Assembly (NCBI GenBank): GCA_048884965.1
Contig: JBHLQH010000051.1
Span: forward strand, 1-17,759
From: Candidatus Thorarchaeota archaeon
GTDB lineage: Archaea; Asgardarchaeota; Thorarchaeia; Thorarchaeales; Thorarchaeaceae
Direction of reading: 5' to 3'
Length of the DNA stretch: 17,759 bases
The position numbers and the translations under genes are program-made. The number at the start of each line of letters is the position of its first letter. Positions within the stretch are counted from its first letter, which is position 1. Shown piece by piece: positions 1 to 17,624 of this stretch. The notes under the pieces were generated by a model. That model made no database searches, had not been told where the DNA came from, and saw only the letters and a list, made by a program, of their open reading frames with translations.

Positions 1-2
1 CT

Positions 3-140
3 AGAAACGAAGCATCGTTCGATATAGAGGTGGAGATTACTGAAGAAGCGGATATACTACCAACAATCTACGCCATTATAGGAATCGCTGTGGTTGGATC
101 AATCATTATTGCCATGGAAGTCTATCATCGCAGAAAATAG
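3..140 (+). CDS. 3' end of a C-terminally membrane-anchored (surface) protein, truncated by the window edge
   Basis: Frame 3 is open from the window start: RNEASFDIEVEITEEADILPTIYAIIGIAVVGSIIIAMEVYHRRK*. A single hydrophobic helix is followed by a basic tail and TAG at 138-140. Confidence 0.75.
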   Translation, partial: RNEASFDIEVEITEEADILPTIYAIIGIAVVGSIIIAMEVYHRRK

Positions 141-262
141 GTTATTTGTAGATTTCACCTTCGACTAGACACAGATTATAAGAGAGATGAAAAGTAAACA
201 CAATTCAGCACATAGAGGTACCCTAAAAAGGACATTTTCAAAAGGAGGAGGAAGCAGTTTTC

Positions 263-538
263 ATGGTGTGGAGAATGAAGATCGAAGACTATGAATTTGA
301 AGAGGAGAAAACTCTCTCAAACCTCGCGACACTTTTGGAAGATATCGCAGAACAACTTCGAGAGGGTCAAATATTAGAGTTGCCTATGCCTTCTAGAAAA
401 GAGGGAAGAATTGAGTTATCTATTGGAGAGCCAGTAGAAACAGGGATTGAAGTAGGAATCCGAAAACATTTCATCCACGTGACACTATCGCTCGCTTGGG
501 CAAGACCGGAAATGAAGGGAGTAATTGATGATGAATGA
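263..538 (+). CDS. Amphi-Trp domain protein
   Basis: About 90 aa with an amphipathic helix (LATLLEDIAEQLREG), beta-strand-like segments and the characteristic terminal Trp (VTLSLAW). An alternative start is ATG 275. It overlaps the next ORF. Confidence 0.7.
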   Translation: MVWRMKIEDYEFEEEKTLSNLATLLEDIAEQLREGQILELPMPSRKEGRIELSIGEPVETGIEVGIRKHFIHVTLSLAWARPEMKGVIDDE

Positions 539-1154
539 TGTGGTATTCACTAGGAAGGAGGTATTGGAAAAGACTGCCGCCATCTTGGAACTTCAAGAGG
601 CTATTAGTTCCTTTGTAGGAAAGAGGCTTTGCGAAACATGTGAAACTGCAGAAGAGGAATGGATGGAAAAACGAACTCACATCATGAAGCATCTGAAGAA
701 TCTCATTTCAAAATACGACTTCGCTCGCACTCTCCCAAGAGACGACTTAGGTATAGCAGCTCAAGCAGTTCTTAGCTACCTCCTCAAGATCCAGTACACT
801 TACGCACAGGTCGTAGTCATGATCGATATGATTCGAGGTGAGCCATTCGGAGAAGTCTATCTGGATTCAATGAATGCTATCTCATCGAAGACCCATCAGC
901 AATTGACGGCCTTGAAGAACTTGACCCTAGAGCGAATAGCAAATCAAGAAGCAGCGACAGCTGCACTGCAATCAGTTGTCAGATTGGAAAGGGAGATTGA
1001 TGAGGACAATATTGTCATTTGCAGGCAAATATCTGTAGCAAGTTTTGAAGGAGAAACGAACTACACATGCTATATGATGCGAAAAATCGTGAGTGAGCTG
1101 GAGCATATCTCGGATTACATAAAGGATGCTGCTGAGGTCATAATCGATATATGA
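525..1154 (+). CDS. DUF47/PhoU-like helical-bundle protein (putative transport regulator)
   Basis: All-helical 209 aa with acidic motifs LEREIDE and ELEHISDYIKDAAE typical of DUF47/PhoU repeats. The N-terminal repeat is degenerate. Confidence 0.65.
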   Translation: MMMNDVVFTRKEVLEKTAAILELQEAISSFVGKRLCETCETAEEEWMEKRTHIMKHLKNLISKYDFARTLPRDDLGIAAQAVLSYLLKIQYTYAQVVVMIDMIRGEPFGEVYLDSMNAISSKTHQQLTALKNLTLERIANQEAATAALQSVVRLEREIDEDNIVICRQISVASFEGETNYTCYMMRKIVSELEHISDYIKDAAEVIIDI

Positions 1155-1165
1155 GGTGTTCGTAA

Positions 1166-2845
1166 GTGGCTGATGTTCTCCCGCTTTACCTCATTGCAGC
1201 CGTCCTTATTGGTGGTGTTGCACTAGCAAAGGTATCTGAAACATACAGGTTTCCATATCCAATCCCATTGATTATAGCGGGGATCCTTCTAGGACAGGCA
1301 AACGAAGTCTTCCCCTTTTTTCCAATCGATATCGATGTCAGCTTTATCGCACAGCTAACACTGGCATGTGTACTCTTCTATGCGGGACTTACTATGAACT
1401 TGAAGGAAACAAATAGAGCTAGAACCTCAATTATCCTTCTTGCAACTTTAGGTGTTTTGCTTACTTCTGTTATCACAGGAGTCACAATGTTCTACATAAC
1501 GCCAGCCGTAGGCACAATCCTTCCTCTTGCGTTGCTTATCGGAGCGATTGTATCACCTACGGATCCAGCTGCCCTATTCTCAGTTCTTGAAAGCGGTGGG
1601 GTCCGAGTCAAGAGAAAGCTCTTCACTTTGCTTGAAGGTGAAGCGGTCTTCAATGATGCAACAGCAGTTGTTCTGGTCACTACAGTCTTTGAGCCTCTGA
1701 TTGTGCCTGGCATTTATGGAGAAGCTCAAATTGAATGGTATATCATTTTCATTGACTTCATCCTTAGTATGGGTTTGGGTGTAGTGATTGGATTTGCAGT
1801 CGCATATGGACTTGGCAGACTGATTAATTCCACTGCTGGAGATACAAATGTTTCAATCCTTACAGCTACTACCCCAATTTTCGCATACGGGATAGGAGAA
1901 GCAATAGCAAGCATTGTTCCAGGAGTCCATCCAGGAGCATTGGCTGCAGTATTTGCGGGAATATTCATGGCTAACTCAAGGATGGTTTCGGTTCCATTCC
2001 TACCTCAAAAATCTATGAGGGGAGTCATGAAGAACGTTTCATTCTTCTTTGAGATTGTAGTCTATATACTTCTAGGATTGACATTGAACACCGTACAGCT
2101 GATAGCAAGACCGGATCTACTTTTCGCAGGATTGGTAGTAGGTATGCTGGTCATTTTTGTTGCACGACCCGTTTCCGTCTTCGCAGTAACGCTGCAGGAT
2201 AAAACAGTAGGATTCAAGGAGAGGTTCTTACTGAGCTGGGCGGGGGTGAAAGGAGTAGCAAGTGCAGCACTTGCCGCTATTGTAGTTGCAGTAATCACAT
2301 CCGTCGATCACGCGGCAGATGTCGAAATTCTTTGGGGTATAAGTGCACAGGAAATTGGTTTGACTATCAATTCAATTGTATTCATCGTAATCCTGATGAG
2401 TCTCTTCATTCAAGGGCTTACAACTCCTATACTCACAACTATGCTTGGACTGGTTGAGGAACAGGATCGAGCACAAGAAATAACTGCTGAAAGAAACGCT
2501 ATACGCCAATCCCTACTACATCTAGTTGATCAGTATACCGAAGGCAAGGTAGATTCGAGACTATACTCACTCTTAAAGATGGAGCTCGAAGAGCAAATTT
2601 TCCATCTTGAGGATGAGCTCCGAAAACTTGTTGCCGAAAGAAGAGCAAGACTTAGGGAGCTAGAGATAAGACATAATCTCGCCCAAAAGAAACTCGAGTT
2701 CTACTCAGCAGAATATGAGGCAGGGAGGATTTCTGACACCACCTTTGAGGATATGAAGGCGGAGCTGGAAGCAGATATAGACGAACTCGCTGCGCATATG
2801 AAGAGTGCTCAAGCATCAGCGCCAAAGAAGAGTGAAGAATCATAG
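1166..2845 (+). CDS. CPA1 / NhaP-type cation:proton antiporter with a C-terminal coiled-coil tail
   Basis: Many TM helices; CPA1 motifs SPTDP, LEGEAVFNDA (ND motif), ARP and WAGVKG. GTG start preceded by GAGGTG RBS. Hydrophilic helical tail of about 130 aa. Confidence 0.9.
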   Translation: MADVLPLYLIAAVLIGGVALAKVSETYRFPYPIPLIIAGILLGQANEVFPFFPIDIDVSFIAQLTLACVLFYAGLTMNLKETNRARTSIILLATLGVLLTSVITGVTMFYITPAVGTILPLALLIGAIVSPTDPAALFSVLESGGVRVKRKLFTLLEGEAVFNDATAVVLVTTVFEPLIVPGIYGEAQIEWYIIFIDFILSMGLGVVIGFAVAYGLGRLINSTAGDTNVSILTATTPIFAYGIGEAIASIVPGVHPGALAAVFAGIFMANSRMVSVPFLPQKSMRGVMKNVSFFFEIVVYILLGLTLNTVQLIARPDLLFAGLVVGMLVIFVARPVSVFAVTLQDKTVGFKERFLLSWAGVKGVASAALAAIVVAVITSVDHAADVEILWGISAQEIGLTINSIVFIVILMSLFIQGLTTPILTTMLGLVEEQDRAQEITAERNAIRQSLLHLVDQYTEGKVDSRLYSLLKMELEEQIFHLEDELRKLVAERRARLRELEIRHNLAQKKLEFYSAEYEAGRISDTTFEDMKAELEADIDELAAHMKSAQASAPKKSEES

Positions 2846-2899
2846 TATCAATGAATTGATTCATATTATCGTTTCATTATTTGCTTCCGCGGTGATTCA

Positions 2900-4276
2900 A
2901 TGGCACATCCTAGGAAGCAGTTCAAGAAGCGAAAACCCACCCCGACAACGATTGTTCGTACCATTCGCCCATTCCGAGAATTCATTCGCTTGGAGTCAGC
3001 TGGTGGTATGATCCTCATCGCCTGCATAGTTATCGCACTAGTGTGGGCCAACTTGCCATTGCTTGGTTTGACATATGAATCTCTGTGGAATTCATACATC
3101 GCAATCGGACTAGGGGAGTTTCTTCTTTCACAGCCCCTTCATTTTTGGATTTCTGATCTGCTGATGGTGGTCTTCTTCTTCCTAATTGGTCTTGAGATCA
3201 AGAGAGAGCTTATGATTGGTTGGTTGTCATCATTTCAACAAGCAATTCTTCCGGTCATCGCTGCAATGGGAGGCATGATCTTTCCTGCGATAATCTTCTC
3301 GGCCTTCAATCCACCGGGATCTCTAGGTTCATTAGGATGGGCAATACCTACCGCTACGGATATTGCAATTGTCCTTGGACTGCTATCTCTATTTGGGAAC
3401 AAAATACCGACCCCACTGAAAGTCTTTGTTGCGACGCTGGCAATTGTGGATGACATCGGTGGTGTAGTACTCATCGCGGTATTCTATTCTCATGGATTGA
3501 ATCTTGTTTTCCTTGGAACCGCTGCTTTAATTGTGGCCATACTCCTAATGCTCAATTATTATGAGATAAGACGACGAATAGCGTACCTTGTCTTTGGATT
3601 ACTACTTTGGGCCAGCCTCTATCTTGGTGGTATCCATCCAACGATAACAGGAATTCTACTTTCCCTCACCATTCCAGCAACCAGATCCATTGACTACAAG
3701 GAGTTCATGGAGATTGCAGATCAATTGGTAGATAGGTTGCACAAGATTATAGGTCCAGAACCTGAAGAAACTGATCCAAAAGCGTTTTTGAATACCACAC
3801 AGACGCTTGAGCTTTCATGTCAAGAGGCTCAGGTACCTCTTCAAAGATTGGAGCATGAACTGACACCTTGGGTTGCTTTCTTAATAGTACCGATATTCAC
3901 CTTGGCAAATGCGGGGTTGATTTTCTCGGAGAATACTCTCATTGCACTAGCAACTCCTCTCTCGGTGGGAATAATCTTGGGACTGGTTGTTGGAAAACCT
4001 CTCGGCATCCTAACTGCACTCCTGATTTCAGACAAACTAGGATTAGTAAAACTACCCGAAACCTTCAGTAAGGGAATGCTTGTTGGTGTGTCGATTCTTT
4101 GTGGTGTAGGTTTCACAATTGCGATTTTCATTTCATCCTTGGCATTTGTTGATCCAATTCTATTAGATGGCGCAAAAGGAGCGATCCTGCTTGCATCCCT
4201 GATATCTGCTGTCGTGGGCGTATTATATCTCAGATGGCAAATAAAACGAGAATCTCTCTTGGTGGCTCAGCAGTAA
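2900..4276 (+). CDS. nhaA: Na+/H+ antiporter NhaA
   Basis: NhaA signatures ESAGG, FFFLIGLEIKRE, GWAIPTATDIA, LAIVDD, GIHPTITG, PLQRLEH, GKPLGI and LCGVGFT. GGTGA RBS upstream of the ATG. Confidence 0.95.
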   Translation: MAHPRKQFKKRKPTPTTIVRTIRPFREFIRLESAGGMILIACIVIALVWANLPLLGLTYESLWNSYIAIGLGEFLLSQPLHFWISDLLMVVFFFLIGLEIKRELMIGWLSSFQQAILPVIAAMGGMIFPAIIFSAFNPPGSLGSLGWAIPTATDIAIVLGLLSLFGNKIPTPLKVFVATLAIVDDIGGVVLIAVFYSHGLNLVFLGTAALIVAILLMLNYYEIRRRIAYLVFGLLLWASLYLGGIHPTITGILLSLTIPATRSIDYKEFMEIADQLVDRLHKIIGPEPEETDPKAFLNTTQTLELSCQEAQVPLQRLEHELTPWVAFLIVPIFTLANAGLIFSENTLIALATPLSVGIILGLVVGKPLGILTALLISDKLGLVKLPETFSKGMLVGVSILCGVGFTIAIFISSLAFVDPILLDGAKGAILLASLISAVVGVLYLRWQIKRESLLVAQQ

Positions 4277-4296
4277 GAAAAAAGGAAGGAGAATCC

Positions 4297-4953
4297 CTAG
4301 AATGATACCTTTCGATAGATATCAGGGATTCTAACTCCGGTCTTTCCATTGAAGACATCACGTAGAAGGTCGAAGTGTTCGTCCAAGTCCTTCAGCAGTT
4401 TCTCAAGTTCATCTGTTGAGATATTGGGTTCTGCGACCCAGATAGTGAGATAATTACTGATTACTCCCAACTCAACTGAACCTTCCTCAAGGTCACGAAA
4501 GATTGTGATCTTGATGAGGAACTCAGCTTCGAACATATTGAGGATGTCATGAACGCTAAGGATGATCAGGTCCAGGAAACCAACAAGATCCTCAAGTTCA
4601 GGCTGCTCTGAAAGACTTCCACGTAGTGATTCATTGAATGTCTGAATAGTTGACGCCTTTTGACGAAGGGTCTCGAACATCTTCATGAGCTTTGTAAAAT
4701 CCTTGATGCTAGTTTCTAGTGAAGGAACAAGTTTTGTGAATAGATTGACTAGAAGCTTGCCTTTTGTATTCTCACGAATGCTTTGATGTTCGTTTAGTTT
4801 GCCGAGAGGTCCGTCGAGGTGTTCAAGCTGCATCAATGTGTTTGTTACTGCTTGGATGGATTTGACAGAGTTCCGCTGAATCTTACCCCAGCGCTCTACG
4901 AAGCTGTCGATGCCGTCACGAAGGTCCTCAAGGATATCGAGCTCTCGAGACAA
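4297..4953 (-). CDS. Helical protein resembling eukaryotic CINP / C1orf109 (AIRIM) family
   Basis: 218-aa all-helical ORF, TTG start with GGAG upstream. The segment SVHDILNMFEAEFLIKITIFRDL...YLTIWVAEPNI matches my recollection of the conserved C-terminal half of CINP. The CDS is solid; the family call is tentative. Confidence 0.55.
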   Translation of the reverse strand: MSRELDILEDLRDGIDSFVERWGKIQRNSVKSIQAVTNTLMQLEHLDGPLGKLNEHQSIRENTKGKLLVNLFTKLVPSLETSIKDFTKLMKMFETLRQKASTIQTFNESLRGSLSEQPELEDLVGFLDLIILSVHDILNMFEAEFLIKITIFRDLEEGSVELGVISNYLTIWVAEPNISTDELEKLLKDLDEHFDLLRDVFNGKTGVRIPDIYRKVSF

Positions 4954-5037
4954 CTTGATGTTCTACTCCATTTACAACTTCTTTTCTTAGCTTATAACTC
5001 ATTCTCAGGGGGCATATCTTCAGAGTTGGCATTTGAA

Positions 5038-7503
5038 TCATGACAATTTGGACGTATCAACTTTCGATGTCCTTCCGAGCGCAATCTTCAATGCATCTAC
5101 GCCACTCGTTGCAAGACCCACTACATCACCAGTGAATAGAGAGAAAAGGACAGAAGCAGCTTTTGCAGGAGCGTCTGTACGTTTCTGTATCGACTCTACT
5201 TCATTGGAGAACCTATGCCAGAGACCATCAAGTGTGCCTCTCTCGACGACTCCTTCTTCCTCAAGGGCTTTCACCAGATTCTTGCCTACGACTCCCTCTG
5301 AGCTGAAGTCACATATCATATCAAGGATCTCCTTATTCTCCGGATTATCCTTCTGACGCTCCAGCAAGGCCACAAATGAGAGAGTAGTATGTTGTACAGT
5401 TTCCAACAATTCTACCAACCGAGCCTTCTGCATTGGTTCGAGATCTGCGTCAAGGGTCAAGTCAATCGATCGTTCAATATTCCCAAAGTCCACAAACGAG
5501 AGATCCTTAAACCGTAGGGTACGCTCAATCTTGTGAGGTTCATCTGTGATAAGATCACGCAATTCCTGTGTACCCAGAATCTTAAGAAGCGAGTCTATCG
5601 TTTTCGGAGAATTGACTCCAGTAATCGGCAGGATGTCCTTAAGATAAACAAGGAACGTTGTGAAATTAGGAAGGAAGCGTTTCAGATCCATTCTCAAGCG
5701 ATCCCGAGATTTTCTCGTTAGCAGATTCAGGTCCTGTCGTTCTCCCTCTGCAGCTAATATAAGTGAGAACTCTATAGCTTTACGCCAGTCCGATTCAAGT
5801 TCGGTATCTATAATTTTGGCAGAGAGAGCAGATTTGTGATCTTTAAGGTAGGTATCTTGTGCTGTATCAGACAGATCAGAGCTTGTTTTGTCCTTTCGAC
5901 CAAGAAGAGATGATGAATAATTGACCAGCAACAACAAGTCCATCATGGTGGGTACGGATTTCGTGGATTCCAAGAGAGCAAGACCCTCAAGGATTCTAGC
6001 TGCTACTGGAAACGCAATCGAGGAAACAAAAGCTGCCCTTCCTAGTGAAGTAAGAGAAAGCTCGGATTTACCAGCTTCTTGGATAAATGGTGGCTCGTGA
6101 CTCATCATTGTCTTGAGCGTCTTGCTGGTTGATCCCTTCTTGAAGAAGAGGTCAAGATTCTCTGAGACTTTTCTTCGATCATCATCAGTCTTTATGATAC
6201 CGTGACCAATCAAGCCAATCAGGAGGCTTGACACATTCGTTTCATCAATAAAGCGGACAGGCATAGTAGGAGAGTTGTACACCTTCTTTAGCGCACCTAC
6301 ATCTTCTATTGACTTTGTGAAGACCGTGCAATTGCCAGGTCGTATCTTTCCCCTGCGTAGACGAACTGCACGAGCCATCATTGATTGTCTGAATATCTCA
6401 TCAATTCCTGGGGACTCCATCACCACATGCGAAACCGGAGCAGTCACGCCATACCCAAGTGCCTCTGTGCCAAAGAGGAATCGTAGATATCCTCTTCGAA
6501 ATGCCCATTCGACAAACCAGCGTTGGCTTTCGGATAGAAGTCCATGATAGATACCAATACCTCCTCTGAATGTAACAGGTGAAGGGTAGCCTACCTCTGC
6601 AATTATCGATGAGATGCTGTTCAAACGTTCCTTGATCAGAGGGTCCAAATCGTATGAGACGGCATCGGCAAGCGAAGGTCCTTCAGAGTCAATGTAGGAA
6701 ACTATTGAGTCGATTGATTTCATGTACACCAACGTGCGTGTACCTTCATCAGCTAGATCTTCAAGAAGGGAGTTGAGTGCTTCCTCCTTTTCTTTTGTCT
6801 TGTTATACTTCACCAAATCAATCTCAGGAGGCAAATACTTCGATTCATCTTGAATCAACTTCACTCCAAAATATGATTCGAGTCGTTCAGGTTCCTCGAA
6901 TTCTGCAGAAAGCACTAGCATTCGAGAGTTGGAGTTGGAAATCGTGCTAAGTATGCTTGATACCTCAAAGAGACGCAATCCTCGCATGGGATCGTGCAGA
7001 ATTGAATGTGCATCATCAAGTACCGATGCAACAAGAGTCTGATTCAGAAGCCAACTGCGTGTAGTATCATATCGAAGGAACTCGCAAAGTGCATCGGGTG
7101 TTGCGATGATGATATTTGGAGGTAATCCTTTTGAGAGGCGTACAATGATATCTGATTCCTCAACACCACGAAAGAGGACGAGAGGGCGAAGGAACCAACC
7201 AAAATATCGTGAGATTGTTGCAGCAGTTTCTCTTGCAGAAGCGTGAAATGGTGCGATGAAAATGGCGAGCTCATTGCAGATCCCTTTGTCAGACTTCTTT
7301 CCCTTCTGTATTGCCTTGAACATCTCATTCGCAATGAAAAGAATACCAGCAAAGGTCTTTCCAGTTCGGGATTGAGACATCAAAGCATAGCTATCCCTTG
7401 ATGAGAACAGTCCTTTCTTCTCCGCAATCAGTTGAACATCATTTAGCTCTTGTATCCCAAGTGCTTTCAATGCCTTGGCGAGTGATGGCTCTAGTGTCTT
7501 CAT
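5038..7503 (-). CDS. Ski2/Hel308-like superfamily 2 helicase, degenerate motifs (possible pseudo-helicase)
   Basis: Q motif GIQELNDVQ, motif I SRTGKT, Ia FIAPF, Ib IIIATPD, II LDDAH, III LSAE, GIGIYHGLLSESQRWFVEWAFRRG, V TEALGYGVTAP, VI QSMMARAVR and winged-helix LTSLGR. Start moved to ATG 7503 (GGAGAGGAG RBS), which removes the overlap with the upstream gene. Confidence 0.85.
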   Translation of the reverse strand: MKTLEPSLAKALKALGIQELNDVQLIAEKKGLFSSRDSYALMSQSRTGKTFAGILFIANEMFKAIQKGKKSDKGICNELAIFIAPFHASARETAATISRYFGWFLRPLVLFRGVEESDIIVRLSKGLPPNIIIATPDALCEFLRYDTTRSWLLNQTLVASVLDDAHSILHDPMRGLRLFEVSSILSTISNSNSRMLVLSAEFEEPERLESYFGVKLIQDESKYLPPEIDLVKYNKTKEKEEALNSLLEDLADEGTRTLVYMKSIDSIVSYIDSEGPSLADAVSYDLDPLIKERLNSISSIIAEVGYPSPVTFRGGIGIYHGLLSESQRWFVEWAFRRGYLRFLFGTEALGYGVTAPVSHVVMESPGIDEIFRQSMMARAVRLRRGKIRPGNCTVFTKSIEDVGALKKVYNSPTMPVRFIDETNVSSLLIGLIGHGIIKTDDDRRKVSENLDLFFKKGSTSKTLKTMMSHEPPFIQEAGKSELSLTSLGRAAFVSSIAFPVAARILEGLALLESTKSVPTMMDLLLLVNYSSSLLGRKDKTSSDLSDTAQDTYLKDHKSALSAKIIDTELESDWRKAIEFSLILAAEGERQDLNLLTRKSRDRLRMDLKRFLPNFTTFLVYLKDILPITGVNSPKTIDSLLKILGTQELRDLITDEPHKIERTLRFKDLSFVDFGNIERSIDLTLDADLEPMQKARLVELLETVQHTTLSFVALLERQKDNPENKEILDMICDFSSEGVVGKNLVKALEEEGVVERGTLDGLWHRFSNEVESIQKRTDAPAKAASVLFSLFTGDVVGLATSGVDALKIALGRTSKVDTSKLS

Positions 7504-7559
7504 GTAATCTCCTCTCCGACGAGTTTCATGCGCGAAGTTCTCCGTAATAAATCTACACA

Positions 7560-8114
7560 CTAGAGGACAAGGATTCCATCACGTATCTGTTTCAGAAGGT
7601 CGGAACTCGTGATGATCCCACTCAACCGTCCCTGTTTCTGTACAATGACTGCCTGATAGTCTTGTAGGAGCGGGATGATAGATTCTACTGATGTTTTCTC
7701 ACTGACCATAGGAATTCCTTCGGGATTCATAATTGCTTCAACAGTCATATCGGTAAGATTGAGGTTCAGATTACGAATGATGTCCCCCTGAGAGATTGAA
7801 CCCACCAATCGAGTTCCCCTAAGAACCGGCAATTGTGAATAACTACCACGTCTCATTATCGCAGCAGCTTGGAGAACAGGGTCTCTTGCATCGATAGTTT
7901 CAACTTCAGAAGTCATTATCTCTGAGCAGACCTTCTTTGTTACACCTGCAAGATATCGAATGATGTCGCGTACAAGCGAGAGCTTGGGATCGAGTTCGCC
8001 TTTCTCCATACGAGCAATGAAAGCTTGAGAAACCCCAACCTCATCGGCCAATTCCATCTGACTGATACCAGCTGAGAGGCGCATTTGCTTGAGGTCTTCT
8101 ACAGTAACGATCAT
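7560..8114 (-). CDS. XRE-family HTH transcriptional regulator with tandem CBS domains
   Basis: N-terminal LKQMRLSAGISQMELADEVGVSQAFIARMEKG HTH followed by two CBS motifs (YSQLPVLRGTRLVGSIS; GRLSGIITSSDLL). This is a widespread archaeal architecture. Confidence 0.92.
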   Translation of the reverse strand: MIVTVEDLKQMRLSAGISQMELADEVGVSQAFIARMEKGELDPKLSLVRDIIRYLAGVTKKVCSEIMTSEVETIDARDPVLQAAAIMRRGSYSQLPVLRGTRLVGSISQGDIIRNLNLNLTDMTVEAIMNPEGIPMVSEKTSVESIIPLLQDYQAVIVQKQGRLSGIITSSDLLKQIRDGILVL

Positions 8115-8133
8115 TCATACCACTTATAATATT

Positions 8134-8152
8134 TTATTACTGGGAGTAATAA
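8134..8152. promoter_or_regulatory. Perfect inverted repeat (candidate operator) in the divergent HTH-CBS / mat promoter region
   Basis: TTATTACT-GGG-AGTAATAA, 8-bp arms with a 3-bp spacer, in the 100-bp intergenic region. Confidence 0.55.
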
Positions 8153-8165
8153 CCTATCGGTTGAC

Positions 8166-8172
8166 TTATATA
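8166..8172 (+). promoter_or_regulatory. Candidate TATA box for mat
   Basis: TTATATA about 43 nt upstream of ATG 8215. Confidence 0.4.
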
Positions 8173-8214
8173 CATTCGTCTGAGCCCTTCCCTTTCAAAG
8201 ACGAGTTGATTATT

Positions 8215-9414
8215 ATGGATCTAAGAGTCACTAGAGGAGCAGGCCCGCCCTTGTCGGAACGAGGTATGGAAATCGTAGAGAGAAAGGGAAAAGGCCATCC
8301 TGATACACTTTGTGACAAGGCGGCTGAGGAACTATCAGTACGCCTTAGCGAGTTTTACATTGAGACCTTTGATAAGGTCCAGCATCATAATGTTGACAAA
8401 GTATTGTTAGTCGGTGGGCAATCGAACGCCCGTTTCGGAGGTGGAGATGTCATCGAACCTATCTACTTACTTCTCAGCGGTCGTGCTGTAGACGTTGTAG
8501 ATAAGAACTATGAGAAGCAAGTACCAGTTGGCAAGTTTGCTGTGGAGCACACCAGGGAGTGGCTACACAATGACCTACCACATCTGGATGTTAATTCAGA
8601 TATCATCATCGATTACAAGATTCGAGCAGGTAGTACTGATCTTGTTGGGAACTTTGATGTTTCCCAGGACGTGCCTAGAGCGAATGATACAAGCTTTGGA
8701 GTAGCCTTTGCACCATTCAGCGATACCGAGAAGATCGTTCTCGAAGCTGAACAGCTCTTGAACAGCTCAAAGGTCAAGAAAGCATGGCCTCAGATTGGTG
8801 AAGACGTTAAGATCATGGGCACTCGAGTTGGGAACAAGCTGCACGTACAAGTAGCAGCAGCAATCATCTCAACTGAAACAAAGGATGCGGACGAGTACAT
8901 GAACGTCATGGATGCTATCAAGAACTATGTGTTTGATCATGCTGTAAAAATCACTGATCACGAGGTCGATGTTTCTGTAAATACAGCAGATTCCTACGAT
9001 GATGGTCTCTACTATCTAACCGTTACGGGTACATCAGCAGAGCATGGTGACGATGGTCAAGTAGGACGAGGCAATCGTGCTACCGGTCTTATCACACCGT
9101 ACAGACCAATGACCCTTGAGGCAGCAGCTGGTAAGAATCCCGTTTCTCATGTTGGTAAGACCTACAATGTTGCCGCACGTGAGATCGTCGAGCGAGTGGT
9201 CAAGGAGCATCCCGATGTCAGCCAGGTCTATTGTTACATGGTCAGCAAGATTGGTGCGCCCATCACTGAGCCACAGGCGGTGAATGTCGAGATCTATGGC
9301 GACTGCGATGTCGATGCAATAAGGAAATCTGTTGAAAGCATCAGCGAAGAAGTCATCGCAAAGCTACCTGATGTCTGGCAAGGCTTTGTAAAACGCGAAT
9401 ACCAACTCTGGTAA
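8215..9414 (+). CDS. mat: Archaeal-type S-adenosylmethionine synthetase (methionine adenosyltransferase)
   Basis: Motifs EIVERKGKGHPDTLCD, HHNVDK, ANDTSFGV, GEDVKIMG, YLTVTGTSAEHGDDGQVGRGNR and EAAAGKNPVSHVGKTYN. True start is probably ATG 8215 (399 aa). Confidence 0.97.
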   Translation: MDLRVTRGAGPPLSERGMEIVERKGKGHPDTLCDKAAEELSVRLSEFYIETFDKVQHHNVDKVLLVGGQSNARFGGGDVIEPIYLLLSGRAVDVVDKNYEKQVPVGKFAVEHTREWLHNDLPHLDVNSDIIIDYKIRAGSTDLVGNFDVSQDVPRANDTSFGVAFAPFSDTEKIVLEAEQLLNSSKVKKAWPQIGEDVKIMGTRVGNKLHVQVAAAIISTETKDADEYMNVMDAIKNYVFDHAVKITDHEVDVSVNTADSYDDGLYYLTVTGTSAEHGDDGQVGRGNRATGLITPYRPMTLEAAAGKNPVSHVGKTYNVAAREIVERVVKEHPDVSQVYCYMVSKIGAPITEPQAVNVEIYGDCDVDAIRKSVESISEEVIAKLPDVWQGFVKREYQLW

Positions 9415-9428
9415 AGTCAAATCAATTT

Positions 9429-9462
9429 AGAGACCCTGAGTGGGTCTCTCATCTTCTTTTTC
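9429..9462 (+). terminator. Hairpin plus T-tract terminator after mat
   Basis: AGAGACCC-TGAGT-GGGTCTCT followed by CATCTTCTTTTTT, between convergent genes. Confidence 0.6.
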
Positions 9463-9748
9463 ATCGTATTCTATTCGGGGTCACTTTTCGGTATTCCCTC
9501 TCCATGGTGTAGAAAAGACCCCATAGAATCAAGCCAAAAGAAAAGAGTAGTAGAGTCTGTAGTGAAGGAATATACACTCCAGGAAAAAGCACCATATACG
9601 CAATCCCGAAGAAAGAAAACGCGAAGCAAATACCGGAAAGCGATTTGAGAATAGATCTATTAGTCCAAGTATTCCATGACGATAGCTTCTGTTGTGCTTC
9701 AGTTGGGTTATCGCCAAACTCAAAATCAGAATCGTAGTTACTTGCCAT
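9461..9748 (-). CDS. Small hypothetical membrane protein (2 TM)
   Basis: GGAGG RBS before the ATG; two hydrophobic helices and a basic C-terminus. Confidence 0.7.
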   Translation of the reverse strand: MASNYDSDFEFGDNPTEAQQKLSSWNTWTNRSILKSLSGICFAFSFFGIAYMVLFPGVYIPSLQTLLLFSFGLILWGLFYTMEREYRKVTPNRIR

Positions 9749-9946
9749 GTCTTACCCTCCAGCAATACCTAATTTAAGCATTAGAAACGATATATGCTTT
9801 TGCGACTCGTGATAACCTTTCGAAAAATGAAGAGGAATCATCAGAGGTCATTCGTAACATCTTTTATTAAGACTCACGTACATCCCCATCCTAGAACAAC
9901 TCGACATTTGATACTCGAGTTGCAATAAATCAGGAGATTTCAAAGC

Positions 9947-10507
9947 ATGGGTAAAGTAGATGACCCAATTGCCAAGCGCATTAGGAAGAAGGCTGCCAAG
10001 GATATCAAGGGAGGCATCTTCGGTAAGATCACTCACTACATTCCTGGCTGGCACGGATACCAAGAGAAGGAAGAACGCCGTGCTGCAGACAAGGTACTTC
10101 GAGAGTTTCTCGCAGACCAGCTTCGGCTAGTCAAACAGGACTTGGAGAAGCTTCAGATGATGGTCGTTGACTACAACTTGACCAAAACCTGGGAAACCTT
10201 CGACCGCATGCTTGCGCTTACGGACAAGATAGAGTCTGGCATTCGATATGCAGACTATGGGTATGCAGCTTGGGGCTCCAAGGAGAAAATCAATGAGGGC
10301 GAACTCGATAAGGTTTACGAGTTCGACGCAGTCATCATTGACGACATTGGGGCCATTAATGATGTTGTAGAAGAATTCCAAGATCAGATGAATCAGGGTA
10401 AGTTCGATGACGCTTGGAACTACACCTACCGCATGTGGACCATCATGCAACGCCTTGAGGAGAAATGGGCGCAGCGTGAGGGTTACATGAAAGGCTATCA
10501 GGATTAA
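9947..10507 (+). CDS. Conserved hypothetical helical protein (IPGxxGYxEKExRRxADKxLR family)
   Basis: GGAG RBS, 186 aa, soluble and helical, with a conserved-looking motif IPGWHGYQEKEERRAADKVLREFLA and a second motif IRYADYGYA. Followed by its own terminator. Confidence 0.85.
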   Translation: MGKVDDPIAKRIRKKAAKDIKGGIFGKITHYIPGWHGYQEKEERRAADKVLREFLADQLRLVKQDLEKLQMMVVDYNLTKTWETFDRMLALTDKIESGIRYADYGYAAWGSKEKINEGELDKVYEFDAVIIDDIGAINDVVEEFQDQMNQGKFDDAWNYTYRMWTIMQRLEEKWAQREGYMKGYQD

Positions 10508-10514
10508 TATATGC

Positions 10515-10552
10515 AAGGTCTTGGGGCTCTGCCCCAACCTTTCTTCTATTTT
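10515..10552 (+). terminator. Hairpin plus pyrimidine-tract terminator
   Basis: TTGGGGC-TCT-GCCCCAA (10521-10537), flanked by AAGG/CCTT and followed by TTTCTTCTATTTT. Confidence 0.6.
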
Positions 10553-10580
10553 CATTTGTTGAAATATTGAGGGGGAAAAT

Positions 10581-10994
10581 ATGCAAACAAGTATTGAATT
10601 CTATGGAGAACCAGCAATAGTGATTGCTCTCTTCTTAGGCGTTGGACTAGGATTCCTCTTGACGGAACTTCTTGAAAGGAAATTTGCCACATGCATTCAT
10701 AGAGGACAAGTGCATGAGAAAAGCCAAAGATCAGTTGATGATGAAACATCATTCTGCTCAAAAGTCTTCAAGTTGTATCAACGAAGCAGGTTTCGTGCAG
10801 GATTCATAACACAGTTACCATACTATATCGTAGTATGCATACTACTGGTCTATCCATTCTCGTTTATGTTGATGAGCAACCCAGATGCTCCGCCCATCTG
10901 GTTGATATTCCCATTATGGGTGATTATTCTGACATGTGTCACGTGTGGGCGAGGGGAACGTGATATTGAGAGGAAAATAGCGAAACGTGAATAG
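10581..10994 (+). CDS. Hypothetical membrane protein (about 3 TM)
   Basis: GAGGGGG RBS; three hydrophobic segments. Confidence 0.7.
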   Translation: MQTSIEFYGEPAIVIALFLGVGLGFLLTELLERKFATCIHRGQVHEKSQRSVDDETSFCSKVFKLYQRSRFRAGFITQLPYYIVVCILLVYPFSFMLMSNPDAPPIWLIFPLWVIILTCVTCGRGERDIERKIAKRE

Positions 10995-11261
10995 ACTGAT
11001 TAATGATCAAGAGATTGGATTTTCAGAATCAACCACCTACATAGTATGAAGATTTTCTTTTGGATTCTAAAGATAATACGAGAACTACTAGGATGACTAC
11101 AGAACTACCTATGGTTATAGTCTGAGATATCACCTTATCTTTGGACTTCTTTGTCATTGTAGTAATTCTCTATCGAATCGAGAAGAATTATCGTGTTCCA
11201 CCTATCAGAGATGCAGAGGCAAGCACTTGAGTACTTCATCTCCAACTGATACGTTTGGGCC

Positions 11262-11723
11262 TCACAGATTCTTCCGTTCATATTGTATTCTTGATTTCCT
11301 CTTTGCCATTGGACGTGCCATTATCCCACCAATCAAAGCACAAAGTCCGGTGATTGCCCAGAAGATTGTGAAGATATTCGGCATGGTTAGTCCTAGATAT
11401 TCCCAATCGACAATTCCTGTAAAGGAGAATGCGACTATAATCATAGAGACTATCCCTGTTACAATACCGAATGCACTTGGGTCAATTGAACCTGCATATT
11501 TCCATACTCCCCATCTCTTCTCTTCATACAGATCGAAGATGATCCTGGCGTATGCGCTTAACAGCGAGAAGAGTAGTAGGAATCCAAGGAAGAAGGCAAC
11601 TCCAATCGCTGCCATCTGCATAATCGTGTTATACAGCAGACTAAGTGGAATCGTAGCAAGAAGACATATCTCAGCGATTCCGTAAAGTACCAATACACGC
11701 TTTCTCAATTCCAAAAAATACAC
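11262..11723 (-). CDS. Hypothetical membrane protein (about 4 TM)
   Basis: Four hydrophobic helices and a basic C-tail (ARPMAKRKSR); GTG start. Confidence 0.75.
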   Translation of the reverse strand: MYFLELRKRVLVLYGIAEICLLATIPLSLLYNTIMQMAAIGVAFFLGFLLLFSLLSAYARIIFDLYEEKRWGVWKYAGSIDPSAFGIVTGIVSMIIVAFSFTGIVDWEYLGLTMPNIFTIFWAITGLCALIGGIMARPMAKRKSRIQYERKNL

Positions 11724-11787
11724 CCTAAACTTAGGGGAAAACCTGACCTAGTATATTAATTCTGTCATCTTTGTGAGATCTTAGTGG

Positions 11788-13836
11788 TCACTCTAATACT
11801 AAATGTGAGTTCCTTCTTCTATCTTGTCCAAATAAGAAAAGTACGATTAGGATAACTGAAAAACTGCCAATGGTTATAGCTTGAGAAATCAGCGTTAGAA
11901 TGTATTGAGGGTTATCAAAGTTGAATGGAAAGGCTGTATACCGATAGGCATCGAGCCCAAAGCTCGACCCCATACCATCATTGTATTTTGTATAGCTGAT
12001 ATACAGCAGTCCATTAGAGCCAATTTCAATCGGATAGGTATAGCTATGGCTAGGGTACGACCAGGTATGATCGCCTATTGTACGATTCCACTCCAGGGAG
12101 CCATTTGAATCCAATTTAATGAGCTCGAATCTATCCGAAAACTTTGGCTCCTCAATGATAGCAAATAATGAAAGATCAGGAGCGATTGCAAAATTGTAAC
12201 ATTCGGCCCAGTCCTGATAGCCGTGGCCATAGTCTAAATTGAATATTGTACTCCAGGAAGGCGAATCCAACGATTCCCATTTTCTGAATGTCGTGAAGCG
12301 GCCACCGGTTTCCTCGACACTTGTGATAGATGCAGTATACAAGTCGCCATTGGTGGAGATATCAATTGCAGTTACAGCGTCTTCCAAATCCCATGCCGAG
12401 CTATCCCAGAGCATAGAGCAATTATTATCAAATTTGTAGAGAGTACCGTATGATTGCACATAGACATTCCCCTCTAAATCGACTTCCAAATCATGGATTC
12501 TGCTTTCTGGAAGGAGGTTATTCGTAAGTACTTCACCCTCATTATTTAGTTTCAAGAGCTCTAGAAATGAAACGGGGATTGAAATATCATAAGAGAGGAA
12601 CCCAACAAAAATGGACCCATCAAAAGAAACTCCTATTTGCGGGTCCAGTACATTGAATTCTGAATGGTATCTTCGTTCCCAAATGATATTTCCATCTGAG
12701 TTGTATTTTACAACAAGAAGAATTGAATTGGCATCCTCTTGATATATTACGCCTGCGGTATAAATTGAATCTCCATCAATGGCCACACTGAAACCACGAG
12801 TCATATTACCATATCTTTGAATCCAGTCTACACCTGTCTGCGGAGTCCATTTCACCAATACTTGTGAGAGATAAATGGGAGAACTATGTGTGTGCATGGA
12901 AGCACCTATTGTGTAGACACAATTATCACTTCCCAGATGCATTGATTCTATATCATCCAATATGGAAAAGTCGTCAACCTGAGCGTCAAAGGGAAATATT
13001 TCTGATGCGGGAGTATTATAGGAATTATTGTAATCTGGTTGAATTGTTTCAGAAGGGTCAGACGGAGTTGTTACAAGAGCGGATAAGGAAGCAGAATAGA
13101 AACGAACAGACACATTTCCTGAATATGTCCTCCAAGGCTCAGATGTACCATACAAACGAAAAGAGTCAGTTGGAGCCAAGCCAAATGCCACAGTTAGAAT
13201 ATCAGTTGGGTCTTCCTGCTCACCCTCATCATTCTCAATCATTCCATGCCAGCCTGCAGACAGAGAAAAGTAGTTCAAATCGACATCATCGGATTTTGTG
13301 CCAACTGAATAAGGTGGATATGAATAATGAATCAAATCCCAATTGCCAGAAGAATCGATAATCCACCAATATACTTCGAACATTTCGTCTGCTTCCTCAT
13401 TTTCTGAGAAGTCACCCGAAGTCGTGATGCTGTATTCCATGGAACCTATTACATCCACTGGGATGAATTCGTAAATCCATTCAAATGACTGCGAAAAGGA
13501 TATGAAATCAGTATGGTCATTGATATACTCTCTCCCGCTAGCAATTGACAATTCGGTCTCAGGTATATGACTCCATGTAAGGTCAATGTAGTAATCATCC
13601 TCTTCGAGATCTGTATCATGGGTCCAAGAGAATTCCCCTGAGAGACCATGAATTTCTATTTCCGGTGTACTCTCGAAATCAGGATCAGGTAGCAAATCAA
13701 TCCAAAAGAGGCCACCTCCAGGAGAATATGATTTAATACAGTCATTGATGGGATTGGGGGATATTGTGAATATGGCTGGAAGTGCGAATAACAGAATGCA
13801 GGTTAGACTCAATATCTTGTAACTTTGCAAATGCAA
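11788..13836 (-). CDS. Secreted, C-terminally anchored protein with a beta-propeller region
   Basis: N-terminal signal-like helix, acidic beta-rich N-domain, repeated blades (VVKYNSDGNIIW, LLKLNNEGEVL, LYKFDNNCSMLW, LIKLDSNGSLEW; D-x-x-G-x-V/L-Y) and a C-terminal TM helix followed by RRR. Confidence 0.85.
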   Translation of the reverse strand: MHLQSYKILSLTCILLFALPAIFTISPNPINDCIKSYSPGGGLFWIDLLPDPDFESTPEIEIHGLSGEFSWTHDTDLEEDDYYIDLTWSHIPETELSIASGREYINDHTDFISFSQSFEWIYEFIPVDVIGSMEYSITTSGDFSENEEADEMFEVYWWIIDSSGNWDLIHYSYPPYSVGTKSDDVDLNYFSLSAGWHGMIENDEGEQEDPTDILTVAFGLAPTDSFRLYGTSEPWRTYSGNVSVRFYSASLSALVTTPSDPSETIQPDYNNSYNTPASEIFPFDAQVDDFSILDDIESMHLGSDNCVYTIGASMHTHSSPIYLSQVLVKWTPQTGVDWIQRYGNMTRGFSVAIDGDSIYTAGVIYQEDANSILLVVKYNSDGNIIWERRYHSEFNVLDPQIGVSFDGSIFVGFLSYDISIPVSFLELLKLNNEGEVLTNNLLPESRIHDLEVDLEGNVYVQSYGTLYKFDNNCSMLWDSSAWDLEDAVTAIDISTNGDLYTASITSVEETGGRFTTFRKWESLDSPSWSTIFNLDYGHGYQDWAECYNFAIAPDLSLFAIIEEPKFSDRFELIKLDSNGSLEWNRTIGDHTWSYPSHSYTYPIEIGSNGLLYISYTKYNDGMGSSFGLDAYRYTAFPFNFDNPQYILTLISQAITIGSFSVILIVLFLFGQDRRRNSHLVLE

Positions 13837-14202
13837 ACTAAATCCCTTCCTTGTTGTAACAACTTAAAGTCAAAAGATTAAGATTTCCCATTAGGCATCC
13901 CTTTATGCTATTTCGAGATGCAGAAGAATACTCAATCTGTCAATCTTCTGTTTGCAAAGAGGAACCAACTCCACACCGTTTCGAATACCGCTTCAGAGAT
14001 TAAAAACAAGCTATTTGGGTTTCTAATGGCTAGAAGAATGCATTTTCATGACAATCAAAGAATCCGAAATCAATGATGTAAAAAAGCCACAGTAGTGACA
14101 GAAACTATATCAGTACAAATCTGATACCACGAGTTCGGACTTCGTCTTGAAGTCTTTCTCTGTTCACTCAGGGAAAAAGTGTTAGGAAGGAGAATTCAAT
14201 AG

Positions 14203-14394
14203 TTGTCTGAAAAAACTAGAGATGTAATGGATTTTGTAATTGGAATACTGGTGGTCACAATGCTCTTTATGGGAGTCATAGTAGGCCTTGGAGGATGGAG
14301 TGACCAGAATGTCTACCTCAAACTGATTGGAATCATTCTCACTCTCGGATTTACTAGTGTTACTATGGCGAGTATGCGCAGCACGACGAAATAG
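14203..14394 (+). CDS. 2-TM membrane microprotein (paralog A)
   Basis: 63 aa, TTG start after GGAAGGAG; aligns with the downstream ORF. Confidence 0.65.
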   Translation: MSEKTRDVMDFVIGILVVTMLFMGVIVGLGGWSDQNVYLKLIGIILTLGFTSVTMASMRSTTK

Positions 14395-14435
14395 GTTCAG
14401 TTCCGTGAAGGGATGACAAGAAAGAGGAGTATCAT

Positions 14436-14624
14436 ATGCGTGACGATATGCTTACGATGAAAGATGTTACTGATTGTGGACTAGGTCTGATGATGATCAT
14501 AATCGTTTTTGCAGGAGTTTTATTTTTCTTTGTACCAACGAACGATTTAGCTTCGTTTCTTAGATTGATTGGATTCACGTTATCGGTGGGTTTCATCGCA
14601 ATGTACAGGATTTTCAAGATGTAG
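14436..14624 (+). CDS. 2-TM membrane microprotein (paralog B)
   Basis: 62 aa, GAGGAG RBS; aligns with the upstream ORF. Confidence 0.7.
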   Translation: MRDDMLTMKDVTDCGLGLMMIIIVFAGVLFFFVPTNDLASFLRLIGFTLSVGFIAMYRIFKM

Positions 14625-14742
14625 AAGAATCGTTTCCGCGAATCTGAGATTCTAAAAATTGTTGCCAGTTTACGAAGTACTATAACGAATAGGACTAGAT
14701 TTTTCGTTCCTATTCTACTGCACTAAGGAGCTAAGATTCTCA

Positions 14743-16149
14743 ATGAATGATTCGCAACCACAAGAAGAGCAGATAATATTGCAACAGTCCAACGAAGAGG
14801 AGGATGTTTCTAGTTTAAGTTGGTCCCAATCTCTTCGCAGAGTGCTTAGTAATCGCAATTGGTCGATCTATTTGGCTACAGTGTGGATATATTCTAGTAT
14901 GAGTGTCCTGATGCAGTATTTCACAATCTACTTTCGGGATATCGGAATTTCATATGTGCTTGTAGGAGCATTGCTTACCCTGATGTTTGGAGTGAACATA
15001 ATAGGCACGGTTGTTTCAGGATATCTAGCTGATAATTACGATAGAAGGAAACTATCTGCTGTCACAATGTTCGTCAACGCAATTGCATTCTTCCTTCTTA
15101 CATTCGCAACCGAGTTTTTCGCGATAGCAATTGCCATGGTCATTGCAGGGTTATCATCATTCACAGGAACTGCGGGACAAGCATACTCAATGCAACAGAT
15201 AGATAGAAGACTAGGAGGAGTTGCGAACAGCTTGTTCACGTTGGGAACAGCATTAGGCTTGGTGCCTTTGTATGTCGTTACTCTCTTGCTCGATGTTGGA
15301 ACGCCATTCATCTTGGTCATGCAGTACCTACTATTCGGAGCGGGTGTGTTGTATGTCTTGGCAGGACTTGTAAGAATGACAGCGCTTGCATCATTGCCAC
15401 TTCCAAAACGTGACAATCACTCAGCCAATTTGCTAAGAGATTTCTTAAGCGAGAATACACGAGGATTAAAACTCCTCATCAAGGTCTTTCCTGTATTCGT
15501 AGCCGTCATTTGTTTAGATGCCTTCAGTGATAGCTTCTACAGATTCGCTAGCTTATACTATGTTAACGAAACACTTGAGTTTTCAATACCTGACATCAAT
15601 CTAATGATGCTGATAACGCTTACAATATCAGTACCCCTGACACTTTGGCTTGGTAGAGTATTTGATAAACGTGGAGGGAAAGGTGTCACAATCGCCGTAT
15701 ACTCGGTCATGCCCATCGCTATTGCTCTGCTCATAATAGCTCAGTATATTCCATATATCTCTCCAGCTGGTTGGAACGAAGCGGTAGATGCAGTATATCC
15801 GGGCTTGAGTGTGATATTCTCTCTTGCATTCATAGGAACCGCAATGAAGTCAATAAACGATGTTCTATGGTTCAGTGTTCTGGGAACATACATCCTGAAA
15901 TCATTGCCAAGACAGGACTTGGGTAAGATGCTGAGTCTCACCATGGTAATTGTTATGATCTTCGTTACATTAGGACCCATTCCTGCAGGAATAATCTACG
16001 ACCTCTTTCAAGGACTACCACTCCTCTACTCAGTCATTGCGATCAATCTTGTGATACTCATCATTCTGATCACAAAGAGTATTGAGCCAAGAATAGATGT
16101 CATCGAACTTGAGAATGGAGATATCCCTAAAACTCAAGAGGATCAATGA
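14743..16149 (+). CDS. Major facilitator superfamily transporter
   Basis: About 12 TM helices, motif A-like GYLADNYDRRK and its second-half repeat GRVFDKRGGK. AAGGAG RBS. Confidence 0.92.
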   Translation: MNDSQPQEEQIILQQSNEEEDVSSLSWSQSLRRVLSNRNWSIYLATVWIYSSMSVLMQYFTIYFRDIGISYVLVGALLTLMFGVNIIGTVVSGYLADNYDRRKLSAVTMFVNAIAFFLLTFATEFFAIAIAMVIAGLSSFTGTAGQAYSMQQIDRRLGGVANSLFTLGTALGLVPLYVVTLLLDVGTPFILVMQYLLFGAGVLYVLAGLVRMTALASLPLPKRDNHSANLLRDFLSENTRGLKLLIKVFPVFVAVICLDAFSDSFYRFASLYYVNETLEFSIPDINLMMLITLTISVPLTLWLGRVFDKRGGKGVTIAVYSVMPIAIALLIIAQYIPYISPAGWNEAVDAVYPGLSVIFSLAFIGTAMKSINDVLWFSVLGTYILKSLPRQDLGKMLSLTMVIVMIFVTLGPIPAGIIYDLFQGLPLLYSVIAINLVILIILITKSIEPRIDVIELENGDIPKTQEDQ

Positions 16150-16284
16150 TTCCCACTCACACGAATTGATACCAATGAATGATTCCCAGGGATATTGAGC
16201 CCTATGACAGATGAAGATAGCTTTTGAAGAAGAGCATTCCAATTTTCAAACCAAGAAAACGTGTAGGGAACTCAAGAAAATGGA

Positions 16285-16716
16285 TCATTCCTTGTCTACA
16301 AAAGCTGAGAACATCTCATCAAAACGTTTCTTCGCTTTCGCTTCATGTTCCGGATCAGCCGTGGTCTTAAGTTCATCAATGTTCAATATGTTGACCTTAA
16401 GCTCGGGGGATTCTTGAATTTCAATCTCAACCGACTCAAAGACCTTTGAAGAGGTCCGACCCATGATATTGGAAAGTTCTTTCACTAATTCCTGACGTCG
16501 TAGACCATATCCAGCAGGTCCTGTGACTTCTCCAAACCACTCCCAGAGATCATACATAGCATCTCCCAATGGTGTATCTCCGTGACCTATTGAAGAGAGT
16601 GTCTTGCTTACTTGGTTTATTATCTGAAAATACACACCACCGTTCCATTCGCCCTTTGTCCAAGACATAACTAACTCATACATACTGGAGGCCAATTCAC
16701 TCACCACGCTACTCAA
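16285..16716 (-). CDS. Hypothetical protein
   Basis: 143-aa ORF with protein-like composition, co-oriented with the upstream Zn-ribbon gene. The start is uncertain (TTG 16716 or ATG 16683). Confidence 0.65.
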   Translation of the reverse strand: MSSVVSELASSMYELVMSWTKGEWNGGVYFQIINQVSKTLSSIGHGDTPLGDAMYDLWEWFGEVTGPAGYGLRRQELVKELSNIMGRTSSKVFESVEIEIQESPELKVNILNIDELKTTADPEHEAKAKKRFDEMFSAFVDKE

Positions 16717-16766
16717 TAGTTGGACTTTGAAGAATCTTATGTAGGGAGTGCGTATCGCTCATTAAT

Positions 16767-17030
16767 CTATTTCTCTGATGTGACCTGAATCCTTCTTACA
16801 TGAACGAGCTCCAAGCAATGAGTGCAAGTGAAATGACTTGGACCATACCATTCAATCACTGCATTAAAATTGATGCTACCTCCGCATTTTGGACATAGAA
16901 CTCGATGCTCATCGGATAGCTGACTCAGACGTTTTGTAATCGATGTGAAATCAACTTCAGGAAATTGAGCCCTTTCGTATTCAAGTTGCGATGGAAGTCT
17001 GGGCTCAACGACTCTGTAATCCTTCTTCAT
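16767..17030 (-). CDS. Small zinc-ribbon protein
   Basis: CPKC...CTHC pairs in 87 aa; GAGGT RBS-like sequence upstream. Confidence 0.75.
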   Translation of the reverse strand: MKKDYRVVEPRLPSQLEYERAQFPEVDFTSITKRLSQLSDEHRVLCPKCGGSINFNAVIEWYGPSHFTCTHCLELVHVRRIQVTSEK

Positions 17031-17190
17031 TTATCAGACCTCATCTCATTCGTAATGATTCCGAAAAGAGCCTATAAGACCGTGCAATACACGCTACACT
17101 CTAAAATCCTAGAGGAGTTTAAACTGTTCAAACGATGTATTGTTCACTATTATATTCAGAGACTCTATCACTTTGTCTAGGTCATAAAAG

Positions 17191-17589: not shown

Positions 17590-17620
17590 AAAAAATAGGC
17601 TAACGTAATGTTAGCCTTTC
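17589..17620. terminator. Probably bidirectional hairpin terminator
   Basis: AGGCTAAC-GTAAT-GTTAGCCT (17597-17617) with A7 on the left (T-tract on the - strand) and TTT on the right, between convergent genes. Confidence 0.65.
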
Positions 17621-17624
17621 TAGT

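Follow-up and report, generated by a model that had tools for sequence, protein, structure and literature searches.

A CINP-like protein encoded by Thorarchaeota and the archaeal side of the 55LCC adaptors

The proteins CINP and C1orf109 attach an AAA+ unfoldase, the 55LCC/AFG2 machine, as its adaptors to ribosomes and replication forks. This machine is essential and linked to disease, and its origin has been described as animal-specific. A small helical protein encoded on a contig of Candidatus Thorarchaeota (JBHLQH010000051.1, positions 1 to 17,759; this whole stretch of 17,759 nucleotides is referred to as the window) raises the question of how far back these adaptors reach. That an Asgard homologue puts the origin of the adaptor before eukaryotes is a point already published, as discussed below. 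With the gene described here it becomes testable whether one archaeal protein was the source of both eukaryotic subunits. Equally, the role of such an adaptor in a cell that possesses neither RLP24 nor nuclear export nor ES27 would tell whether substrate adaptors of unfoldases of the Cdc48 family predate eukaryogenesis.

The gene, here called CINP-like (CINPL), occupies positions 4297-4953 on the reverse strand, starts with TTG and encodes 218 amino acids, the stop codon being included in the coordinates. The frame from stop to stop comprises 221 amino acids, three codons beyond the called ORF, and since the initiator methionine of twenty homologues aligns with the TTG codon, start and gene model are sound. 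A helical ORF with three peptides had been reported by the first-pass annotation, and it is present as described, intact and all-helical: FVERWGKIQRNSVKSIQAVTNTLMQL covers residues 18-43 (nt 4825-4902), LGKLNEHQSIRENTKGKLL residues 50-68 and SVHDILNMFEAEFLIKITIFRDL...ISNYLTIWVAEPNI residues 133-178 (nt 4420-4557), the last at the very positions that had been given for it. The motifs of human CINP to which these peptides had been likened, LILKWETLNDAGFTTANNIANL and SHKLLEMYRKELLLKRTVAKEL...LSYLSMWLHQPYVE, are genuine; they occur in the PDB chains and align to the same segments of CINPL.

The helix-1 motif FVERW... (residues 18-43, 4825-4902, reverse strand) contains W22, which does not vary in alignments A2 and A3 and corresponds in the profile alignment to W37 of human CINP, within LILKWETLNDAGF. 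Helices 3 and 4 carry the family signature M-[FY]-E-x-E-[FL]-L-x-K ... Y-L-T-[IV]-W-x-x-E-P (residues 133-178, 4420-4557, reverse strand), of which M140 and P176 are invariant and E142, E144, Y168, W172 and E175 nearly so across the Asgard classes (alignments A2/A3), and which aligns to EMYRKELLLK...YLSMWLHQPYV of CINP. CINPL and CINP have in common the tryptophan in helix 1 and the motifs M-[YF]-x-x-E-[LF]-L-x-K and YLxxWxxxP, which align with the same CINP residues.

A further stretch of conservation, consisting of the C-terminal helix and the tail (residues 180-218, 4300-4416, reverse strand), is of a Thorarchaeota type and distinguishes the protein from CINP. Among 20 aligned thorarchaeal sequences K185, L190, H193, L196, L197, F201, G203, K204, T205, G206, P210 and D211 are invariant or nearly so, and the tail, at residues about 202-218 (window 4300-4350, reverse strand), follows the pattern F-x-G-K-T-G-[IV]-R-x-P-D-x-Y-[RK]-K. 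In the alignment this C-terminal segment is not conserved in the other Asgard classes, and the tail is absent from them as well as from CINP. The pLDDT of the AF2 model in consecutive blocks of ten residues from residue 191 onwards is 86, 58 and 43, with values below 50 at residues 213-218; the tail is possibly a short linear docking motif. No family matching the protein was found in NCBIfam. Two metatranscriptome libraries contain only short contigs of 178-233 nt, about 94-95% identical to nt 4736-4966, but these were rejected as evidence of CINPL transcription because they derive from relatives and DNA carry-over is possible.

What kind of protein is encoded? When the single CINPL sequence was compared by phmmer with the 177,635 sequences of the PDB, only human CINP chains were retrieved (E 0.0017-0.003). 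A profile of 18 Asgard members recognised CINP at E 6.3e-10, positions 6-185 running collinear with positions 5-181 of the 196-residue chain, and a profile from which every thorarchaeal sequence had been left out did so at E 5.9e-10. Coiled-coil proteins were also matched by the Asgard profiles (E 1e-4 to 1e-2), the best unrelated ones being 5-6 orders of magnitude weaker than CINP. The sequence similarity to CINP is significant, full-length and collinear between two proteins of around 200 amino acids, although their identity is only 15-19%.

The relation to C1orf109 is more distant. The best Pfam family for CINPL is PF15011 (C1orf109-like / CA109-like), with 16.8 bits and E 0.0065 over model positions 13-99; as the gathering cut-off is 27 bits, CINPL itself is a relative of this family rather than a Pfam member of it. 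Of the 18 Asgard family members 17 match PF15011, and several non-thorarchaeal ones pass the cut-off with 36-54 bits (52.1, 54.5 and 50.9 among them), nearly spanning the model (positions 5-158 of 161) with a best E-value of 1.6e-14, although these matches are to be read with the qualification that the current seed may itself include CINP-like or Asgard sequences. Many thorarchaeal homologues bear a precomputed PF15011 match as well. The human C1orf109 chain was matched collinearly by the 18-member Asgard profile at E 0.12 only and was not reached at E<=1 by the non-thorarchaeal profile. Judged by direct sequence comparison, CINP is closer to CINPL than C1orf109 is.

The predicted fold leads to the same pair of proteins. 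An AF2 model computed from a 32-sequence alignment (pLDDT 89.2, pTM 0.82) is a bundle in which five helices are long (residues 2-45, 59-112, 118-157, 162-174 and 180-201) and one is short (51-55). A structural comparison had been proposed with the first-pass annotation; in a Foldseek search of the PDB with this model, the top rows were CINP and C1orf109 chains of 8CIH, 9GWJ, 8RHN and 9LGO, with a probability of 1.00 and TM values of 0.5-0.7, at E-values of only about 3e-3. With VIA-align, CINP (8cih_A) was the best solved match, the helical bundle superposing with Z 16.3 and an rmsd of 3.2 A over 182/188 residues. A search of 48,161 representative chains that was independent of Foldseek placed CINP at rank 1 (Z 14.8) and C1orf109 at rank 3 (Z 13.7), C1orf109 being the next-best natural structural match after CINP. 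For C1orf109/AIRIM (PDB 9GWJ_A/C, 8RHN_A), the counterpart of which in plants is OPNR, the superposition extends over 186/202 residues with an rmsd of 3.7 A and a TM of about 0.6, and the fold is the same. In the ESM Atlas, too, the clusters nearest to CINPL are eukaryotic and C1orf109-like, whether nearness is measured in shape or in language-model features.

De novo designed bundles reach Z 14.2 and 13.5 against the CINPL model, values comparable with that of C1orf109, and because designed bundles score similarly, homology is not provable from the fold alone; fold and sequence evidence together prove it. The proposal that CINPL is homologous to CINP is thereby borne out by both the profile (E 6e-10) and the structure (Z 16.3). 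That the protein would show features of both eukaryotic families has held as well, for CINP by direct comparison and for C1orf109 by way of the relatives that pass PF15011, the second-best natural structure and the ESM Atlas.

The family appears to be confined to Asgard archaea. An index of 5.8 billion proteins yielded 147 relatives at 65-100% identity, the named ones being without exception proteins of Thorarchaeota-type Asgard MAGs annotated as 'hypothetical'. When 1.84 billion representatives were scanned exhaustively with HMMER, only 22 proteins came up at E<=0.001, several of them unnamed metagenomic proteins and none a recognisable eukaryotic protein. The distant full-length homologues (22-31% identity, E 2e-20 to 3.5e-4) belong, where named, to Asgardarchaeia, Promethearchaeota or Hodarchaeota, such that every homologue carrying a name in the protein-index and HMMER searches is Asgard. 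A survey across the Asgard phylum, which the first-pass annotation had likewise suggested, detected the gene in 128 of 400 genomes, clustered in few families. Within these it is near-universal (79/85 in its own family and 21/22, 17/19, 5/5 and 2/2 in others), and from other Asgard families in the same scan it is absent (0/135, 0/31, 0/14, 0/12 and 0/12). CINPL is thus a real gene, conserved across Thorarchaeota and detectable in other Asgard classes. It is essentially present in one copy per genome, the few extra matches in the 400 genomes being fragments or split contigs, and it is single in its own genome (4.09 Mb, 96% complete), where a second, divergent paralogue was considered and rejected, the sole other match (13 bits, E 0.09) being taken as noise. 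With high confidence, the protein is a Thorarchaeota-type member of an apparently Asgard-restricted CINP-like family, homologous to CINP and more distantly to C1orf109/AIRIM.

Such a family is already known. CINP homologues have been described in five major Asgard clades, no prokaryotic ones having been known before and none being found in other prokaryotes (Koestlbacher et al., bioRxiv 10.1101/2024.07.03.601958, July 2024; Nat Microbiol 2026, PMC12962969). The first-pass annotation had taken the protein for a possible new eukaryotic signature protein; that part of it does not stand, since the Asgard CINP homologues had been published in both of these versions. The published proteins and CINPL are, as far as can be judged, of the same family, the inclusion of this exact protein or clade among them being assumed: both are apparently Asgard-restricted, occur in several major clades but not in all, match over the full length and find in CINP their best eukaryotic structural counterpart. 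In the published phylogeny, which covers CINP only, the eukaryotic sequences form one clade, placed with those of Hodarchaeales (UFBoot 99%; PMC12962969). The main text of that study mentions C1orf109 in a reference title only and discusses neither an ATPase partner nor a linkage to a helicase (PMC12962969), and our literature search returned no other paper that links C1orf109 to archaea.

Has one archaeal protein then given rise to both eukaryotic adaptors? Both paralogues are found in animals and plants, OPNR being C1orf109-like and OAP1 CINP-like (PMC12332008), and the duplication that separates CINP from C1orf109 is therefore old within eukaryotes. The archaeon encodes, according to the search of its own genome, no second, C1orf109-like paralogue with which CINPL could pair, a difference from the situation of CINP. 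A single Asgard copy that resembles both paralogues is compatible with an ancestor from before the split between CINP and C1orf109, and no less with a CINP orthologue, in which case C1orf109 would have branched off in eukaryotes and evolved fast.

For the function of the protein, the eukaryotic relatives provide the frame. The funnel above the AAA+ rings of human 55LCC is built from two C1orf109-CINP heterodimers, each T-shaped, and from the N-domains of SPATA5 (four subunits) and SPATA5L1 (two subunits). The C-terminal helices of RLP24 are bound by both adaptors before this protein is threaded, and on the pre-60S particle CINP touches GTPBP4 and ES27A (PMC12019325). Plants use OPNR and OAP1 equivalently in the OPENER complex (PMC12332008). 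By homology, CINPL would be a non-enzymatic adaptor as its relatives are in 55LCC and OPENER. It would, probably as a homo-oligomer, sit on the N-domains of a double-ring AAA+ unfoldase of the Cdc48 type, to the pore of which it would deliver a client associated with ribosome or replisome. We hold such an adaptor role on a Cdc48-type unfoldase tentatively, as the likeliest of the roles considered here; for the explanation as a whole, which combines the CINP-like identity with the adaptor mechanism and is the best that we can offer, we regard the chances as evenly balanced.

Candidate partners are at hand, as the genome of the archaeon (G000) encodes two CDC48_N-CDC48_2-AAA-AAA proteins, at C8:83263-85509 and C96:2107-4302, which share 55% identity. 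A dedicated 'AFG2-like' Cdc48 paralogue co-distributing with CINPL was looked for and rejected: a tree of 60 sequences from 9 CINPL-positive and 12 CINPL-negative genomes contains no clade restricted to CINPL-positive genomes. Nor does the copy number of CDC48_N track CINPL, with 2 copies in the CINPL-positive thorarchaeal family versus 3-5 and 2 in two CINPL-negative families. A complex prediction of CINPL (A3) with the N-domains of both Cdc48 paralogues (A5, A6), run without controls, scored 0.01, below the mark, and counts neither for nor against binding.

In an alternative reading, CINPL is a true homologue of CINP and C1orf109 that would act in archaea as a free-standing scaffold for ribosome-biogenesis or replication factors, independently of an AAA+ ATPase, the AFG2-type link having arisen in eukaryotes only. 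The failure to find a co-distributing Cdc48 paralogue agrees with it, as do the lack of an AAA gene near CINPL in any of the six loci examined, the retention of 2-5 Cdc48 genes in many Asgard families that do not possess CINPL, and the contacts of human CINP with GTPBP4 and the rRNA element ES27A, which are made independently of the ATPase (PMC12019325). However, a generalist Cdc48 with exchangeable adaptors is not expected to co-distribute with any single one of them, and the only biochemically defined setting of these proteins, in animals and plants alike, is the N-domain ring of a Cdc48-family hexamer (PMC12019325, PMC12332008), which argues for an old association between adaptor and ATPase. 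We consider the free-standing scaffold rather unlikely.

The eukaryotic client is not simply transferable to the adaptor role proposed here. The contact segments in eukaryotes are residues 80-163 of RLP24 and residues 452-474 of GTPBP4 (PMC12019325). The single L24e of the archaeon lies in a 71-aa frame and its one NOG1-type GTPase in a 365-aa frame, both too short to hold these segments; the partners that CINP contacts in eukaryotes, namely the tail of RLP24, the extension of GTPBP4 and ES27A, are missing from the archaeon in that form.

Two minor observations concern the Cdc48 proteins themselves. In two Asgard genomes the CDC48_N domain is found in frames of about 1240 aa (G075:C9:116707-116955 (L073) and G397:C47:3860-4111) instead of the usual 730-770 aa, which may represent fused or extended forms of Cdc48. 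Equally, one CINPL-positive genome (G079, contigs C704 and C335) encodes two very divergent Cdc48_N proteins (L041 and L043) with branches of 2.9 and 3.5 substitutions per site, the placement of which in the tree is unreliable.

A different partner is suggested by the genomic surroundings. Upstream of CINPL and on the same, reverse strand follow a divergent Ski2/Hel308-like helicase of 840 aa (5038-7560, with DEAD and Helicase_C matches) and a regulator with HTH_3 and a CBS pair according to Pfam (7560-8114), the order being regulator, helicase and CINPL, with an archaeal SAM synthetase gene divergent to them. The regulator is divergent from the SAM synthetase in two other Thorarchaeota contigs as well (window 7560-9414; L007:4027-5885; L008:3950-5811). 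The helicase motifs are degenerate in translation, DDAH and SAE replacing DExH and SAT, and the nearest solved relatives are weak matches of the ASCC3, Slh1 and Hel308 type. CINPL might have as its main partner this adjacent degenerate (pseudo)helicase, with which it would constitute a nucleic-acid or ribosome surveillance module under the HTH-CBS regulator. For such a module speaks the linkage itself: the helicase occurs in 11 of 86 genomes of the thorarchaeal family, belonging to 4 of 16 genera (besides the window, G325, G326, G328, G329, G335, G336, G341, G347, G355 and G319), and in each of these 11 it immediately precedes CINPL, upstream and in the same orientation, even though identity between copies is as low as 47-64%. 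The intervening gap in the window is 84 nt, and ASCC3 and Slh1, although matched weakly (E 4e-8 to 6e-7), are ribosome-quality-control helicases.

The distribution, on the other hand, does not follow. With this query no helicase was found in 75 of the 86 genomes, yet CINPL is kept in 79/85; in L007 and L008 the HTH-CBS gene is directly upstream of CINPL with no helicase between them, and in three other Asgard lineages no helicase stands beside CINPL either. Within the same genera CINPL is about 85-89% identical, the helicase thus evolving much faster, and the latter would be at most a lineage-specific add-on. Although the linkage between helicase and CINPL is genuine, it is lineage-specific and cannot account for what the family as a whole does, and a helicase as main partner is in our estimation improbable. 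The gene neighbourhood as a functional clue in general was discarded, the neighbours of CINPL being wholly different between Asgard classes in three other lineages.

That the resemblance to CINP is convergent, CINPL being a generic prokaryotic helical bundle or coiled coil that matches by composition and heptad pattern, as the designed bundles scoring as high as C1orf109 and the coiled-coil proteins matched by the profile might suggest, is highly improbable in the face of CINP matches far above the best coiled-coil noise and collinear over the full length, of non-heptad motifs that do not vary across Asgard classes and recur in CINP (W22; M-F/Y-E-x-E; YLTxWxxEP), of the independent PF15011 matches and of a published phylogeny that places eukaryotic CINP within Asgard sequences (PMC12962969).

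The adaptor reading can be extended into a more far-reaching scenario, which takes up a suggestion of the first-pass annotation. Both 55LCC adaptors would descend from a still undivided CINPL, which would surround the N-domain ring of archaeal Cdc48 as a homo-oligomeric collar; from this pair the AFG2A/B-CINP-C1orf109 machine would have been elaborated by duplication of ATPase and adaptor, and in some Thorarchaeota the pair would have become coupled to the degenerate Ski2-like helicase. Taken in its entirety this scenario is speculative, and we deem it unlikely.

Two loci deserve mention for their own sake. On an 'Asgardarchaeia' contig (L003:6677-10389) CINPL is situated between the gene of an Arf-like small GTPase and RNase HII, close to PAC2, a chaperone of proteasome assembly, and a family-B DNA polymerase, a context unseen in the other lineages. 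In G326, just upstream of the helicase (C341:2038-2464), the C-terminal part of the helicase (residues 693-839) is matched twice more over short stretches. One of these bears two in-frame TGA codons, and both have the appearance of a decayed copy or a partial duplication.
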